Shown here: positions 30,596-38,597 of the stretch, one piece after another
How the letters are laid out: each line of letters begins with the position of its first letter
Numbering within the stretch: position 1 is the stretch's first letter
The notes under the pieces: generated by a model
What the model saw: only the letters and a program-made list of their open reading frames with translations
What the model was told of the DNA's origin: nothing
Database searches by the model: none
Translations under genes and position numbers: made by a program
Origin: a virus
Taxonomy: Duplodnaviria > Heunggongvirae > Uroviricota > Caudoviricetes
Direction: 5' to 3' (one strand)
IMG/VR virus record: IMGVR_UViG_2695420485_000017
DNA length: 38,866 nt

Positions 30596-31246
30596 ATGAA
30601 AACTCAATTGATGGGAGAGCGCATTCGCGCTCGGAGAAAAGAACTCAAGATCAGGCAGGCCGCACTTGGAAAGATGGTCGGCGTGTCTAATGTTGCCATA
30701 TCTCAGTGGGAACGCTCTGAGACAGAGCCAAATGGAGAGAATCTTCTCGCCCTGGCTAATGCGTTGAAGTGTTCCCCTGACTATCTGATGAAAGGAGAGG
30801 AAAGTCTTTCAAACATTGCCTATCACAGTAGGCATGATCCAAAAGGGTCATTCCCTCTGATTAGCTGGGTGAGCGCAGGATGCTGGATGGAAGCTGTAGA
30901 ACCATATCATAAGCGTGCAATAGATAACTGGTACGATACAACCGTAGACTGTTCAGAAGATTCGTTTTGGTTGGACGTGAAGGGAGACTCAATGACGGCT
31001 CCGGCCGGTCTCAGTATCCCTGAAGGAATGATAATACTCGTCGATCCTGAAGTAGAGCCGCGTAACGGGAAACTGGTAGTTGCAAAGCTCGAAGGAGAAA
31101 ACGAGGCAACTTTCAAGAAGTTAGTTATTGATGCAGGCAGGAAGTTTCTAAAACCACTTAACCCACAATATCCGATGATCGAGATCAACGGAAACTGCAA
31201 AATCATCGGCGTAGTTGTCGATGCAAAACTAGCAAACCTTCCATAA
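30596..31246 (+). CDS. c2: C2 repressor (LexA-like, S24 autopeptidase domain)
   Basis: 216 aa, near-identical to recalled P22 c2 (MKTQLMGERIRARRKELKIRQAALGKMVGVSNVAISQWERSETEP...GDSMTAP...). Confidence 0.95.
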   Translation: MKTQLMGERIRARRKELKIRQAALGKMVGVSNVAISQWERSETEPNGENLLALANALKCSPDYLMKGEESLSNIAYHSRHDPKGSFPLISWVSAGCWMEAVEPYHKRAIDNWYDTTVDCSEDSFWLDVKGDSMTAPAGLSIPEGMIILVDPEVEPRNGKLVVAKLEGENEATFKKLVIDAGRKFLKPLNPQYPMIEINGNCKIIGVVVDAKLANLP

Positions 31247-33932: not shown

Positions 33933-34547
33933 ATGAGCAAAGAATTTTACGCAAGACTGGCAGCTATTCAGGAGAATCTGAACGCGCCAAAGAATCAGTA
34001 CAACTCATTCGGTAAATATAAATACAGAAGCTGCGAAGACATTCTTGAAGGCGTTAAGCCGTTACTGAATGGCCTGTTTTTATCAATCAGCGATGAAGTT
34101 GTGTTGATTGGTGATCGGTATTATGTGAAAGCCACGGCAACTATTACCGATGGCGAAAACAGTCATACGGCAACCGCTCTTGCACGAGAGGAAGAAAGCA
34201 AGAAAGGAATGGATTCTGCACAAGTTACTGGAGCTACAAGCTCTTATGCACGCAAGTATTGCCTCAATGGTTTATTCGGCATTGATGATGCGAAAGATGC
34301 AGATACCGACGAGCATAAACATCAGCAGAACGCAGCAGCAAAGCAATCAAAACCATCAAAACCATCACCTACACCTGAACAGGTTCTAAAAGCATTCACT
34401 GACGCAGCATTGCAGAAAAACACCGTGGAAGAGCTTAAACAGGCGTTCGCCAAAGCGTGGAAGATGCTCGAAGGCACACCGGAGCAGCACAAAGCGCAGG
34501 ACGTTTACAACATCAGACGAGACGAATTAGAAGGAGCTGCTGCTTAA
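33933..34547 (+). CDS. erf: Erf single-strand annealing recombinase
   Basis: N-terminal half (MSKEFYARLAAIQENLNAPKNQYNSFGKYKYRSCEDILEG...) matches recalled P22 Erf; ATG 33933. Confidence 0.75.
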   Translation: MSKEFYARLAAIQENLNAPKNQYNSFGKYKYRSCEDILEGVKPLLNGLFLSISDEVVLIGDRYYVKATATITDGENSHTATALAREEESKKGMDSAQVTGATSSYARKYCLNGLFGIDDAKDADTDEHKHQQNAAAKQSKPSKPSPTPEQVLKAFTDAALQKNTVEELKQAFAKAWKMLEGTPEQHKAQDVYNIRRDELEGAAA

Positions 34548-34953: not shown

Positions 34954-35247
34954 ATGCCAGCGCCTCTGTATGGTGCGGATGACCCGCGCCGCTGTTCCGG
35001 CAATTCCGTATCGGAGGTGCTGGATAAATTCAGAAAAAACTACGATCGAATAATGTCGCTACCGCAGGAAACGAAAGAGGAAAAGGAATTTCGCCATTGT
35101 ATATGGCTTGCAGAGAAAGAAGAACGCGAGCGAATTTACCAGACATCAATCCGACCATTCCGCAAAGCCACATATACCCACTTCCCTGAAATTGACCCGC
35201 GCCTGCGTAATTACCGCTCACGCTATGGCGCTATCAGTAATGACTGA
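34954..35247 (+). CDS. Hypothetical protein (position of abc-type anti-RecBCD genes in P22)
   Basis: 97-aa ORF downstream of erf/ssb; function not assignable from sequence. Confidence 0.5.
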   Translation: MPAPLYGADDPRRCSGNSVSEVLDKFRKNYDRIMSLPQETKEEKEFRHCIWLAEKEERERIYQTSIRPFRKATYTHFPEIDPRLRNYRSRYGAISND

Positions 35248-35257
35248 GGAACTAACA

Positions 35258-35548
35258 ATGAAAACAATGAAGCTAAACATCGACCTCGGCAAATACGTTA
35301 TTACCGGAACAAAACACGACCTGATTCTTAGTGAAAGAGGAATTATCAAAGAAGGTGAGAATGCAGGGAAAGAAACACTAAGCCGTATCGGTTATTACAG
35401 CAAGTTTGAGCATCTGGTTAAAGAATTATGCAACCGTGAAATCCTGTTATCTCAGGCGCAGACGCTACAGGATATTCAGCAACATATCGAGACTTTAGGT
35501 GTGTCACTTAGCATGGCCGTTGACCAGTTCGTGGAGAGTAAATCATGA
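35258..35548 (+). CDS. Hypothetical protein
   Basis: 96-aa ORF with GAGGA RBS; ORF track shows longer overlapping frame. Confidence 0.5.
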
Positions 35549-35709
35549 GAGGACTTGCATACAATCCCGGCATTCTTCCGGCAGAAATGATTATTCGCCA
35601 ACGCGTAAAGCCAATGCCATCGAGAAAGGAATTACTTAAGAGAAAGAGTTTCGGTTCTGTTAATGACAACAAATATCTGAATGCGATGTTGCGGAGTGGG
35701 AAGAAATGA
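35545..35709 (+). CDS. Hypothetical small basic protein
   Basis: 54-aa ORF, ATG overlapping upstream stop and its own stop overlapping next start (translational coupling). Confidence 0.35.
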
Positions 35710-36041
35710 AACAAATGTCACTAATTGAGATGGATGGATTTCTGAAAGGTAAATGCATCCCACGAGATTTAAAGGTGAACGAAACAAACACTGAATATCT
35801 GGTGCGTAAATTTGCTGAACTTGAAGCTAAATGCGCGGCGCTGGCTGCGGAGAATGCGGGGCTGAAGGATTACCTGGCCCCTATAGGGCTGAAGGTTGAA
35901 GGGACTCCAACCACCGACGCTTTCCTGGCTGAAGTACGAGCGCAGGGCGTGGAGATGTTTGCTGAGTGCGCATACACACTTGAACATCATGATCACGCAG
36001 TAGCCTTCGCCGCTGAGCTTCGCAAAGGAGGCAACCAGTGA
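35706..36041 (+). CDS. Hypothetical protein
   Basis: 111-aa ORF; C-terminus GGNQ-stop encoded by repeat AAGGAGGCAACCAGTGA. Confidence 0.5.
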
Positions 36042-36523
36042 CTGGACATGCAGCAATTCTCGACATGTGCTGTGGCAGTCGCATGTTCTGGTTCGATAAG
36101 AAGGACGGCCGGGCGATATTTAGCGATATCAGAAAGGAAGAGCACACATTGTGTGATGGACGACGGCTGATAATTAGCCCTGACCTGATAGCAGATTTTC
36201 GTGCATTACCATTTGCAGACGCATCGTTTCCGGTTGTTGTATTCGACCCTCCGCATCTTGAGCGTGTTGGTGATAACGCCTGGATGGGAAAGAAATATGG
36301 ACGGCTGAATAAAGATACCTGGCGTGATGATTTGCGGCAGGGATTTAAAGAAGCCTTTCGTGTGTTGCGGCCATACGGCGTTCTGATTTTTAAATGGAAT
36401 GAAACGCAAATACCTGTTCGCCAGATATTGGCACTGACCGACAGAAAGCCTGTTATCGGTCAACGAACAGGAAAGGGTGACAAGACCCACTGGATTATTT
36501 TTATGAAGGAGGGCAACCAGTGA
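36038..36523 (+). CDS. Putative SAM-dependent (DNA) methyltransferase
   Basis: Motif I-like ILDMCCGSR and motif IV-like FDPPH; GTG start 6 nt after AAGGAGG. Confidence 0.65.
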   Translation: MTGHAAILDMCCGSRMFWFDKKDGRAIFSDIRKEEHTLCDGRRLIISPDLIADFRALPFADASFPVVVFDPPHLERVGDNAWMGKKYGRLNKDTWRDDLRQGFKEAFRVLRPYGVLIFKWNETQIPVRQILALTDRKPVIGQRTGKGDKTHWIIFMKEGNQ

Positions 36524-37290
36524 GCCAGATTGATTATCAAAAGCTTCGTGAAATCGCTGAAAAAACAAAAATTGCCGGTGAAGCACCTGTAATGCCTTTC
36601 GATCAGCGAATTAATGCGCTTAACGATTTTATGAAGCACTTTTCGCCAGATATCGCGCTGGCATTGCTGGATGAACGGGAAAGAAACCAGCAATACATCA
36701 AATCCCGCGATCAGGAGAACGAGGATATTGCGCTAACGGTAGGGAAGCTGCGTGTTGAGCTGGAAGGCAAAGACAGCAAAATAGCCAATCTTACCGCCGA
36801 ACGCGATGCTCTTCGTGAAGGTGAGATGGGCGACGCTAGGCATAGCAACACACGGGCCGCAGCTGATATCTACTTCCAACTGGTCGAGGAGTGCGAAATT
36901 CCTGCTGGCGGTTCTCTGGTCGAGTACGTTGACGATATGCGCGAGAAGCTGGAAGCCGCAGAGAAGCGCAACGCAAAATTACAAAGAGAGAATGCATACA
37001 TCCGCAACCGGTACAAAGAACTGGACCTATTAATCGGGAAAAACATTCTGGTCATGCAGGCTGCGATTATCGAATGGCAATCGACTGGCGACGCTAAAAG
37101 CGGACTGGCATGGATTTATAACACACTGTTTGGCCCAGGCGAATTACCGGACGAATCTGAGAAAGATGCTCAGGCCTACTTTAATCGCAAATATGCACCG
37201 ATTGACGAAAAGCTTATGGAGCTTCACAAGTGGTTTTGGGAACAAAGTGAAGCCGAGCGCGCCGCTGGCATTCGCATCAAAGGAGAGTGA
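36520..37290 (+). CDS. Hypothetical coiled-coil protein (Ea22-like position)
   Basis: 256-aa ORF with GTG start after AAGGAGGG RBS; charged helical sequence. Confidence 0.5.
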   Translation: MSQIDYQKLREIAEKTKIAGEAPVMPFDQRINALNDFMKHFSPDIALALLDERERNQQYIKSRDQENEDIALTVGKLRVELEGKDSKIANLTAERDALREGEMGDARHSNTRAAADIYFQLVEECEIPAGGSLVEYVDDMREKLEAAEKRNAKLQRENAYIRNRYKELDLLIGKNILVMQAAIIEWQSTGDAKSGLAWIYNTLFGPGELPDESEKDAQAYFNRKYAPIDEKLMELHKWFWEQSEAERAAGIRIKGE

Positions 37291-37291
37291 T

Positions 37292-37441
37292 ATGGCTAAG
37301 TACATCGTGACTATCGAAGGATTTAATGATTGCAAGGTTGTTGAGTTTGAAGCAGACACGCCAGAGGATGCCGAAGAAATAGGCAGAGACATATTCTATG
37401 AAGAATGCAACTACGGCGTATCACCTGCTACAGAGGACTAA
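37292..37441 (+). CDS. Hypothetical small acidic protein
   Basis: 49-aa ORF MAKYIVTIEGFNDCKVVEFEADTPEDAEEIG... with AAGGAGAG RBS. Confidence 0.45.
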   Translation: MAKYIVTIEGFNDCKVVEFEADTPEDAEEIGRDIFYEECNYGVSPATED

Positions 37442-37444
37442 CAC

Positions 37445-38065
37445 ATGACCACTTTAACCGACAAAGAACTGATTAAAGAAATCAAAGAGCGCATAGGCAG
37501 CTTGGACGTTCGAGACAATATTGAGCGCCGTGCTTATGAAATTGCACTGGCATCACTGGAACGCGAACAGATTCGCCACGAGCATGCCAAATGGTCTGAC
37601 TCCACATTTGGCTGCGTTGGCCCCATTGGTCCACTGAAACACCTCTCAAAAGAGGCACTGGAAGCCGCAGCCGAACCAGACGATCTTAGCGAGTGGGCTG
37701 ATATGCAGTTTCTGTTGTGGGATGCACAGCGCCGTGCTGGCATCAGCGATGCTGAAATTACCGCTGCTATGAAAGATAAATTGAAGATCAACATGGAGCG
37801 CCAGTGGCCTGAGCCAAAAGATGGTGAGCCTCGCTTGCACATTAAAGAACCCGGCAACTCTCCGGTAACTCCGGATGGCTGGATAAGCTGTAGTGAGCGA
37901 ATGCCGGACGACGCGCAGTGGTGCGTAGTTGACGCCGCAGACGGGTATTACGTGCAATGCTGGTCTGAAGGTCAAGGATGGCTTGGAGATGACATCAGCC
38001 TACGTAATTGCGATGTAATCAGATGGATGGCGATTCCTGAACCGCCGGAGCAGGATGGTGAATGA
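37445..38065 (+). CDS. Hypothetical protein (DUF550/DUF551-like)
   Basis: 206 aa; C-terminal WISCSERMPDD...YVQCW...VIRWMAIPEPP resembles the recurrent prophage DUF551 pattern. Confidence 0.55.
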   Translation: MTTLTDKELIKEIKERIGSLDVRDNIERRAYEIALASLEREQIRHEHAKWSDSTFGCVGPIGPLKHLSKEALEAAAEPDDLSEWADMQFLLWDAQRRAGISDAEITAAMKDKLKINMERQWPEPKDGEPRLHIKEPGNSPVTPDGWISCSERMPDDAQWCVVDAADGYYVQCWSEGQGWLGDDISLRNCDVIRWMAIPEPPEQDGE

Positions 38066-38252: not shown

Positions 38253-38597
38253 ATGTCAGATTTGGCTATGAAGATTTTGAAATGGCAATCGACTGGCGAT
38301 GTCGGCATCAGTAGCGCAACTCTTGCCTCAATCGCGTGTGGACTGAAAAAGAATATCTATGGTCATCACTTCGGCGCTCCACATGACGCAGCCGATTTCC
38401 GACGATGCGTTGCACTTGTTGAGCAGATTCCAGAAATCAGATACTCATTCGACAAGGTTGCAAAGCGCGTTCCGGCATTCAAAGGAATCCTCAACGAATG
38501 GGATTCTCTCGTTGCTCTGTTGAAGTCTGAAATGAAGATACACGGAAACAAAGCACCAGAGACTTACAGAAGAATCAGCGAGCTACGCAAGGACTAA
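38253..38597 (+). CDS. Hypothetical protein
   Basis: 114-aa ORF with GGAGA RBS; shares WQSTGD motif and 19-bp DNA identity with the Ea22-like gene. Confidence 0.5.
   Translation: MSDLAMKILKWQSTGDVGISSATLASIACGLKKNIYGHHFGAPHDAADFRRCVALVEQIPEIRYSFDKVAKRVPAFKGILNEWDSLVALLKSEMKIHGNKAPETYRRISELRKD

Follow-up and report, generated by a model that had tools for sequence, protein, structure and literature searches.

The methyltransferase (MTase) gene studied here lies between two copies of what is probably a lineage-wide gene-junction module, hereafter linker A, at which single-gene cassettes would be exchanged between phages by homology. The window, that is, the whole stretch of 38,866 nucleotides that we analyzed, is a P22-like (Lederbergvirus-type) E. 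coli prophage, and the repeat is located on the + strand of its early-left operon (Table 1). The feature at this locus belongs to a known kind, of which it is a well-marked case, and is not a new kind; for the study of linker-mediated mosaicism in phages, it offers a test case of unusual clarity and abundance that is also experimentally tractable.

Since 1978 there has been debate on how temperate phages came to be mosaic gene by gene, homology at linkers being opposed to random illegitimate joining followed by selection. To our knowledge, linkers have been hard to find at most gene boundaries. The locus described here is a clear example of the long-proposed linker route for single-gene swaps in temperate phages. 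Because a single 15-18-nt junction recurs in hundreds of genomes with dozens of unrelated partners, the old question becomes testable by crosses, for which the locus offers natural filled and empty alleles, a recombinase in the same operon and a parallel junction in another lineage. It also points to a defined hotspot in which to seek new phage accessory or counter-defense genes.

Two copies of a gene junction bracket a methyltransferase ORF

The first-pass annotation described 17-bp direct repeats bracketing the MTase ORF, and direct reading of the sequence bears this out. The left copy, AAGGAGGCAACCAGTGA, is 17 nt long and the right copy, AAGGAGGGCAACCAGTGA, is 18 nt long, with one G more than the left. 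Their exact common core, GGCAACCAGTGA, spans 12 nt and has no other occurrence in the window. Stop and start overlap as GTGA at both junctions, with AAGGAGG placed 6 nt 5' of each GTG. Exact 12-mer repeats are not rare in 39 kb (tens of pairs are expected from an arithmetic estimate), and it is the placement of the repeat, rather than the recurrence of a 12-mer, that is exceptional. Among the 38 RTGA-overlap junctions of the window (703 pairs), this pair is the sole outlier, with 11/16 ungapped matches compared with at most 9/16 for every other pair, and it reaches 16/16 once a 1-nt gap is allowed. Related genomes, presented below, indicate that the likeness of the two copies is due to descent and not to chance.

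Table 1. Features at and around the bracketed methyltransferase gene (positions in the window)
Feature	Position	Strand	Evidence and remarks
CI-type repressor gene	30596-31246		Upstream of the repeat
Erf-family single-strand annealing recombinase gene	33933..34547	+	Pfam PF04404 ERF, E 1.2e-44
Abc2 anti-RecBCD gene	34954-35247		Adjoins the Erf gene
DUF2737 gene	35545..35709	+	Pfam PF10930, E 4.4e-29; conserved anchor upstream of the variable region
hkaH-like gene, 111 aa, ending ...RKGGNQ-stop	35706..36041	+	ORF list; PHROG 614, E 9.6e-42; PHROGs 492 and 368
Linker A, left copy, AAAGGAGGCAACCAGTGA	36024..36041	+	Sequence; exact 18-mer in at least 120 IMG/VR contigs
Left repeat copy, 17 nt	36025-36041		Direct reading
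Left copy, SD AAGGAGG	36025-36031		Followed by spacer CAACCA
Left copy, GTG start	36038-36040
Left copy, TGA of the upstream gene	36039-36041
MTase ORF, 161 aa, GTG start, ending ...MKEGNQ-stop	36038..36523	+	ORF list, family scans
MTase motif I, LDMCCGS (residues 8-14)	36059-36079
MTase motif IV, FDPPH (residues 69-73)	36242-36256
Linker A, right copy with +1 G	36506..36523	+	Sequence
Right copy, SD	36506-36512
Right copy, GTG start of the Ea22-like gene	36520-36522
Right copy, TGA stop of the MTase gene	36521-36523
Ead/Ea22-like gene, 256 aa, GTG start	36520..37290	+	Pfam PF13935, E 1.2e-19; PHROG 250

The gene upstream of the MTase encodes a homologue of HK620 hkaH, whose middle is variable while its N-terminus and its tail are both conserved. 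The Ead/Ea22-like gene on the other side is the usual right-hand partner of the linker, and the ea/hka genes lie downstream in the same early-left operon.

Each copy had also been said to encode the C-terminus (GGNQ or EGNQ) of one gene together with the RBS and GTG start of the next. This is true of the window, but the peptide is not a conserved entity, since relatives without the extra G in the right copy (AAGGAGGCGGCCAGTGA, AAGGAGGCGACCAGTGA, AAAGAGGCAACCAGTGA) read the same DNA in another frame. MTase homologues are alike up to ...HW(I/V)(I/S)F(V/M)K157, and what each tail reads beyond K157 depends on its context (EGNQ, EATSG, GGAA, GAAV, D and others). Right copies read KEGNQ, KEAASEQD, KEATSE or KQEATSEQD before the stop, according to a 1-nt indel; the MTase of L002 ends in KEAASEQD and overlaps Ea22 by 14 nt, and that of L026 ends in KEATSE. 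A second cassette, SNSARL, is likewise frame-shifted (KQEATSEQD), and in L121 an extra base recreates a ...GGNQ end and the TGA/GTG overlap. These comparisons indicate that the conserved thing at the junction is DNA, not peptide. Independent frame-restoring +1 changes in two cassettes suggest selection for the 4-nt overlap, and hence for translational coupling.

Linker A recurs at one early-left position in related phages

We then compared the junction across phage genomes. The consensus of linker A, (CTTCGC)AAAGGAGGCA[A/G]CCAGTGA, was found in P22-like and lambdoid Escherichia phages. There, in the early-left (pL, ea/hka) operon, it is the usual junction linking an hkaH-like (or DUF2737) gene to an Ea22-like gene. 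The exact 18-mer AAAGGAGGCA[AG]CCAGTGA is present in at least 120 IMG/VR contigs. Among the 124 sites listed, linker A joins ~41 upstream tail variants to 16 downstream classes. Upstream partners include many hkaH-like genes ending in ...AAQLRKGG[SN]Q, DUF2737 genes fused directly to the linker and others; downstream classes include Ea22-like genes, the MTase and unrelated small ORFs (TVCLID, SGKRMT, SNSARL, NNRFYM, SESKCQ, SVTVEK, SNYLYW and others). The spacer and the wobble positions of the linker are far more uniform than RBS function needs.

A sample selected by the 18-mer is biased by construction, and the conservation profile around its sites was used qualitatively only. Three other comparisons are independent of linker selection: DUF2737-anchored regions, the comparison of MTase-bearing loci, and a 61-nt probe. 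For the DUF2737-anchored sample, we took 61 distinct regions and sought a linker-like site within 4.5 kb downstream. Such a site was present in 53 of the 61 regions; exactly one was found in 52, and two only in L149, which is window-like. This shows that one copy is the normal state and that two-copy bracketing is exceptional. As a specificity control, the 18-mer was scanned in 185,579 species genomes (one each), giving 46 hits against ~35 expected by arithmetic; the biologically related hits were in Escherichia only.

The first-pass annotation had considered that a repeat ubiquitous at unrelated gene junctions would speak against insertion at a conserved linker. As it turns out, the repeat is ubiquitous where unrelated genes meet, but it is confined to one early-left position in related phages. 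Its presence there rules out a target-site duplication specific to the insertion, but not the linker idea, and unrelated-gene junctions that share the repeat are what a linker predicts.

Empty sites carry a single linker

Empty sites, in which the upstream gene directly precedes the Ea22-like gene, had been proposed as a check and were found in HK620, HK97 and ~250 phage records. HK620 carries a single linker and no MTase (hkaH...CTTCGCAAAGGAGGCAGCCAGTGAGCAAGATTGAC...hkaG), its hkaH and Ea22-like hkaG genes being adjacent over one copy (...CTTCGCAAAGGAGGCAGCCAGTGAGCAAGATTGACTATCAGG...). A 61-nt empty-junction probe, consisting of the upstream tail, the linker and the Ea22 start, matched 359 phage records, 250 of them at ≥80% coverage. 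The matches include HK97, HK544, HK75, HK542, HK446, HK633, mEpX1 and many Stx phages, including Stx2a.

Both neighbors of the MTase were also found without it. The window's own upstream tail is followed directly by an Ea22-like gene in L017, L019, L049 and L115, whereas in L067 another cassette takes that place. Conversely, the window's Ea22 variant (VSKIDYQKLREIAEKTK...) occurs right after a single linker behind four other upstream genes; its N-terminal variant was found in this position in L015, L017, L040, L044, L058 and L086.

Sequence identity breaks at the linker copies

Alignments of MTase-bearing loci place the breakpoints at the copies. Compared with L130 and L213, identity is ~35% up to 36024, 97-100% from 36025 to ~36530, and ~35-40% thereafter. 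This island of ~500 bp, which comprises the MTase and both copies at 97-100% identity between unrelated flanks, locates the breakpoints. In L216, identity to the window begins at the left copy and runs on into Ea22, while in L131 it extends from the upstream gene through the right copy and stops there.

Across ~30 MTase-bearing loci with many partners, the MTase is 93-99% identical. It has at least seven left partners (six hkaH-like tails, DUF2737 directly and a DUF977 gene) and at least six right partners (five Ea22 N-terminal variants, the SNYLYW cassette and non-coding DNA). To see if the copy found in the DUF977 (Rac-like) context had an ea-region donor, we searched downstream of the MTase for traces of the Ea22 5' end, and local alignment scored no better than shuffles. 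We found nothing on breakpoints in PMC9836094. Together, the empty sites, the single-linker neighbors and the breakpoints at the copies lend good support to the earlier proposal that the MTase ORF was inserted by recombination at a conserved linker.

Other cassettes and a parallel junction in Klebsiella-type phages

The MTase is not the only cassette followed by the junction, as the SNSARL and SESKCQ cassettes also end in a 3' linker copy. Tandem arrays were observed as well: linker-SESKCQ-linker-NNRFYM, linker-MTase-linker-SNYLYW, and hkaH-like-linker-hkaH-like-linker-SNTARL. The TVCLID, NNRFYM and SVTVEK cassettes occur without a 3' copy, showing that a second copy of the junction is not a requirement.

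In Klebsiella/Enterobacter-type phages, the orthologous upstream genes end in ...QLREGAK and the junction takes another form (linker B, ...GCGAGGGGGCCAAATGA), which joins at least 14 upstream genes ending in ...REGAK to at least nine unrelated downstream genes. The same MTase is present in the Klebsiella-type L259, where it is bracketed by the local junction GGGGGCCAAATGA (left side, GAGGGGGCCAAATGAcc; right side, AAGGGGGCCAAATGAgc); empty sites matching this locus were found in L294, L296, L298, L301 and L302. In L257, an exact 18-nt repeat flanks the MTase on both sides, and the empty site predicted for this repeat, GAGGCCAGCAATGACTAA, has no exact match in IMG/VR. The use of a different local junction in Klebsiella-type phages indicates that the right copy derives from the local junction and is not a set end that travels with the MTase. 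In both the linker A and the linker B lineages, the MTase 3' joint lies at the AAGG/AGG shared by the last conserved codon and the SD.

A model for cassette exchange at the linker and its alternatives

Linker A is a module in which a strong SD and a 6-nt spacer lead to the next gene's GTG, which overlaps the TGA of the gene before it. With these elements in the module, the following gene would be translated by coupling and would not need signals of its own. In the window, a promoterless cassette consisting of the MTase ORF and a second, 3' copy of the junction lies between the hkaH-like and Ea22-like genes, one copy serving the MTase and the other still serving Ea22. Since the junction is nearly identical between unrelated flanks, it could offer a short homology patch for exchange by co-infecting phages or prophages. 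Such exchange would probably involve phage annealing recombinases such as Erf, a candidate catalyst of short-homology exchange that is encoded 1.5 kb upstream, outside the cassette. The second crossover might occur in a neighboring conserved stretch, e.g., ~45 nt of the conserved Ea22 N-terminus. Alternatively, exchange may be rare and visible only over evolutionary time. The 3' copy probably dates from a joining event between the MTase end (...F-V/M-K, AAGG) and the purine-rich SD of the local junction. A precise deletion of the cassette is predicted to read ...AAAGGAGGCAACCAGTGAGCCAGATT.

Phage recombinases of the Rad52-like group, Erf among them, work more efficiently than RecA on short or diverged homology (PMC3945230; PMC2327257), and the MEPS (minimal efficient pairing segment) is 23-27 bp for Red-beta and 31-34 bp for RecA (PMC3945230). 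The strictly identical block spans 15-18 nt, and up to ~27 nt with its upstream shoulder. A block of this size does not exceed the quoted MEPS, so that the linker by itself would be an inefficient place of exchange. Conservation of the left copy may also come in part from selection on the protein tail FAxQLR(K/E)G, which the E. coli and Klebsiella lineages have in common.

In the main alternative, illegitimate or microhomology joining happens anywhere and selection keeps whole ORFs with two RBSs, the linker not being a preferred crossover. The same breakpoints could result if joining were illegitimate and selection favored intact ORFs and a working RBS, and several observations fit this: the limits of the repeat coincide with those of the functional unit that runs from the SD to the stop/start overlap; the MTase 3' joint falls at an AAGG/AGG microhomology in both linker lineages; the core is below published MEPS; some cassettes have no 3' copy; and the independent +1 indels restoring the TGA/GTG overlap in two cassettes point to selection on the junction. 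We nevertheless consider this scenario unlikely, because an MTase that is 95-99% identical, with at least seven left and at least six right partners, is always broken at the same 15-18 nt. Repeated independent events would not reuse the spacer CA[AG]CCA each time, and the uniformity of the spacer and wobble positions goes beyond RBS need. Illegitimate joining explains the first 3' copy, but not the reuse of the spacer with so many partners.

It is far less probable that the repeat is a target-site duplication, or the site of a dedicated mobile element (transposon-, integron attC- or homing-type) with the MTase as cargo. The direct repeats flank a single ORF exactly, the flanking repeat follows the local junction of each lineage as a target duplication would, and the tandem cassettes recall integron arrays. 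Against this, the insert consists of the MTase ORF only, with 464 nt between the copies and no room for a transposase or endonuclease, and terminal inverted repeats are absent around the cassette, the single inverted-repeat pair found being unrelated. The duplication has no fixed length (17 versus 18 nt in the window, variable among relatives), other cassettes sit at the site without a second copy, and the single copy is the ancestral, dominant state. Neither copy forms a stable hairpin compared with shuffled controls (z = +0.85 and +0.40). On these grounds, a transposon or IS insertion is unlikely. Chance or convergence of two strong RBS and GTGA junctions is barely credible: AAGGAGG and RTGA overlaps are common signals and a repeated 12-mer is no rarity at this length, but the pair stands alone among all junction pairs of the window, its spacer is identical in hundreds of related genomes, and identity islands end at the copies.

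Exchange by homology at linker A thus remains our preferred reading. As a more ambitious and rather doubtful extension, the hkaH/Ea22 junction (linkers A and B) might be more than a passive homology patch, namely a selected plug-and-play cassette site, an integron-like hotspot operated by the phage's own annealing recombinase. The promoterless MTase and at least nine other small ORFs, possibly with counter-defense functions, would then be swapped without a dedicated recombinase. Since the crossover site itself would hold the RBS and the start codon, arriving genes would be translated at once.

Comparison with known modular systems

Susskind and Botstein (1978) reportedly put forward the linker model of modular phage evolution. 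The HK620 genome report of Clark, Inwood, Cloutier and Dhillon in 2001 (J Mol Biol 311:657) reportedly lists seven boundary sequences separating functional modules. A passage of PMC3029335 presents the boundary-sequence, or linker, concept and cites it to 2001 work and to that of Susskind and Botstein in 1978. Like lambdoid boundary sequences, linker A is short and conserved at a gene boundary with unrelated flanks; such sequences are a proposed focus of recombination and possibly take part in expression control. The phage group is also the same, and HK620 carries linker A between hkaH and hkaG. We found at linker A three features of boundary sequences, namely varying flanks, breakpoints at the site and overlap with an RBS and a stop/start. 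Unlike the boundary sequences reported in 2001, linker A brackets single-gene cassettes, is duplicated and has a lineage-specific Klebsiella-type counterpart.

Exchange between lambdoid phages via short or diverged homology has been shown experimentally (Martinsohn et al., 2008, PMC2327257; De Paepe et al., 2014, PMC3945230). The locus resembles this relaxed, homeologous recombination by Rad52-like enzymes, which include those of the Erf type, in that the window encodes Erf. Those studies, however, concern homologies of hundreds of bp with short identical blocks, while the linker block is 15-27 nt only.

The cassette also recalls a moron, as the MTase is a single accessory gene present in some relatives only, between two conserved genes. 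Morons, the extra genes of the Hendrix type, carry their own promoter and terminator. No promoter-like site was found between 35400 and 37400, no terminator-like site was found at the cassette borders and there is no intergenic space; the missing promoter and terminator rule out a moron identity. Unlike a moron, the cassette is fused into the translational chain of the operon by 4-nt overlaps. Similarly, integron cassettes are promoterless single-gene units that occur in tandem, with a repeated site after each and an upstream promoter. Here, in contrast, we found neither an imperfect palindrome nor a structure of the attC type, and the repeat also serves as RBS and start. The window ORF list contains no IntI-type integrase, neither copy folds better than shuffled controls, and an integron cassette identity is unlikely.

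The cassette encodes a putative orphan methyltransferase

The first-pass annotation raised the possibility of an orphan anti-restriction methylase. This reading is supported in part: the ORF is intact and encodes a predicted class I SAM MTase with motifs I and IV, and no restriction nuclease gene lies beside it, its neighbors being the hkaH-like and Ea22-like genes with 4-nt overlaps. "Orphan" here means that there is no adjacent nuclease gene. In an alignment of 27 MTase homologues, D70, P71 and H73 are invariant and P72 nearly so, and the MTase keeps 71/71 invariant columns of the family. The conserved core ends at ...HWIIFMK157, the last four residues being encoded by the linker.

The MTase matched PHROG 954 "DNA methyltransferase" (E 2e-87) and two PADLOC models, MTase_II (E 4.9e-74) and orphan-MTase (oMTase, E 1.3e-50). 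Pfam gave no DNA-MTase family match, only weak Methyltransf_11/25 hits, sequence searches found no PDB relative, and no relative with measured specificity was found. A predicted structural model of moderate confidence (pLDDT 72) resembles class I MTases in general, with Foldseek returning E ≥ 0.017 and a mixture of RNA, protein and DNA amino-MTases. We take the protein to be a putative orphan N-methylating nucleic-acid MTase that would most likely modify phage DNA; it may plausibly act on DNA and have an anti-restriction role. Since the gene belongs to the early-left operon, it would be expressed early after infection or induction, and not from the repressed prophage.

By its description, the MTase resembles PamA, a 141-aa GATC-specific orphan MTase of the S. 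aureus prophage mPhi11 (PMC12435837): both are very small and prophage-encoded, have no partner nuclease and carry a (D/N)PP(Y/H) motif ~65-70 residues from the N-terminus. The two differ in that the MTase family has DPPH rather than NPPY. A literature search for the DPPH motif with a phage MTase returned no match.

We further investigated how widespread the gene is. Across phages of five bacterial phyla, the MTase is 45-65% identical, and in a more speculative reading it might have a target more universal than a DNA motif. Of 5,426 complete E. coli genomes, 945 matched the MTase DNA, and in 855 the match covered ≥80% of the gene. The gene is often decayed in E. coli, and the O157:H7 and DUF977-context loci that we inspected are annotated pseudogenes.

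Linkers at gene junctions

The linker that joins the hkaH-like gene, the 161-aa methyltransferase (MTase) ORF and the Ea22-like gene, a ribosome-binding site with a TGA/GTG stop/start overlap, carries a one-base gain in its right-hand copy in two different cassettes. For the SNSARL cassette, another small ORF found after this linker, the gain is seen in L121 compared with L069 (related phage or prophage regions); for the MTase cassette, it is seen in the window in comparison with L002 and L131. These gains turn the read-through tails ...EATSEQD and ...EAASEQD into ...GGNQ and ...EGNQ (each followed by a stop codon), and both restore the four-base TGA/GTG overlap. The gains in the two cassettes are independent.

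A second conserved junction, GCTGGCATTCGCATCAAAGGAGAGTGAtATG, ends the Ea22-like gene (...AAGIRIKGE, then stop) and is also found in HK620 and Stx2c phages; in the Salmonella phages Oslo, ST-35, L277, L281 and L286, the MTase instead lies directly 3' of a junction of this Ea22-end type. Klebsiella/Enterobacter-type phages (L259, L266-L268, L271-L276, L282 and L292-L312) have their own linker, ...CTGCGCGAGGGGGCCAAATGA, which joins many unrelated genes both upstream and downstream. It comes after genes ending in ...QLREGAK, which show clear homology to the ...QLRKGGNQ tails seen in E. coli phages.

Positions of features in the window
Feature	Position	Description
hkaH-like gene	35706-36041	mosaic; homologues in L008-L127
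One-base gain	36511-36513	right-hand linker copy of the MTase cassette
DpdH model match	36952-37248	Ea22-like protein residues 145-243
27-nt direct repeat	37065-37091 and 38273-38299	89% identical copies
Second conserved junction	37261-37294	end of Ea22-like gene
206-aa ORF	37445-38065	dATP/dGTP pyrophosphohydrolase domain (PF04447, E 2.1e-42) and DUF551 domain
114-aa ORF	38253-38597	unannotated

Variation and spread of the MTase

Many E. coli chromosomes contain decayed MTase copies (L003, L128, L129, L227-L238 and further E. coli genomes). In a Rac-like prophage, one decayed version follows a DUF977 gene; it is ~86% identical and interrupted by frameshifts or stops. Another decayed version, from O157:H7, is a hybrid, with an ea-type left junction but a 3' end and downstream DNA of the DUF977 type, a structure implying recombination within the MTase gene between these two contexts.

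Within a 27-sequence family alignment, the homologues P0008, P0047, P0107 and P0120 are 248-251 aa long and add to the MTase core a conserved C-terminal extension of ~90 aa, which reads ...LELESLLL...LPAHHQRRLKHHINRMWLEK... and may be a read-through fusion with the downstream gene. When compared with phage records, the small MTase family shows 65% identity to Gordonia phage proteins, 45-60% to proteins from phages of Acinetobacter, Vibrio, Listeria, Enterococcus, Streptococcus, Staphylococcus, Bacteroides, Porphyromonas and Akkermansia, and 38% to a Halorubrum tailed virus 28 protein. This is unusually high conservation across very distant phages. Database labels for the homologues conflict (N4-cytosine, cytosine or plain "methyltransferase"), and no characterised member was found among the matching phage records.

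Neighbouring genes

The hkaH-like genes are themselves mosaic: a conserved N-terminus and a conserved tail flank a hypervariable middle that differs greatly in length between homologues. Overall, they range from 111 to ~250 aa. PHROGs 368 and 492 are common to hkaH-like and Ea22-like proteins. The Ea22-like protein matches the PADLOC model DpdH in its C-terminal region (E 1.5e-35). The 27-nt repeat encodes I(I/L)(E/K)WQSTGD in both the Ea22-like protein and the 114-aa ORF, which thus have a short module in common.
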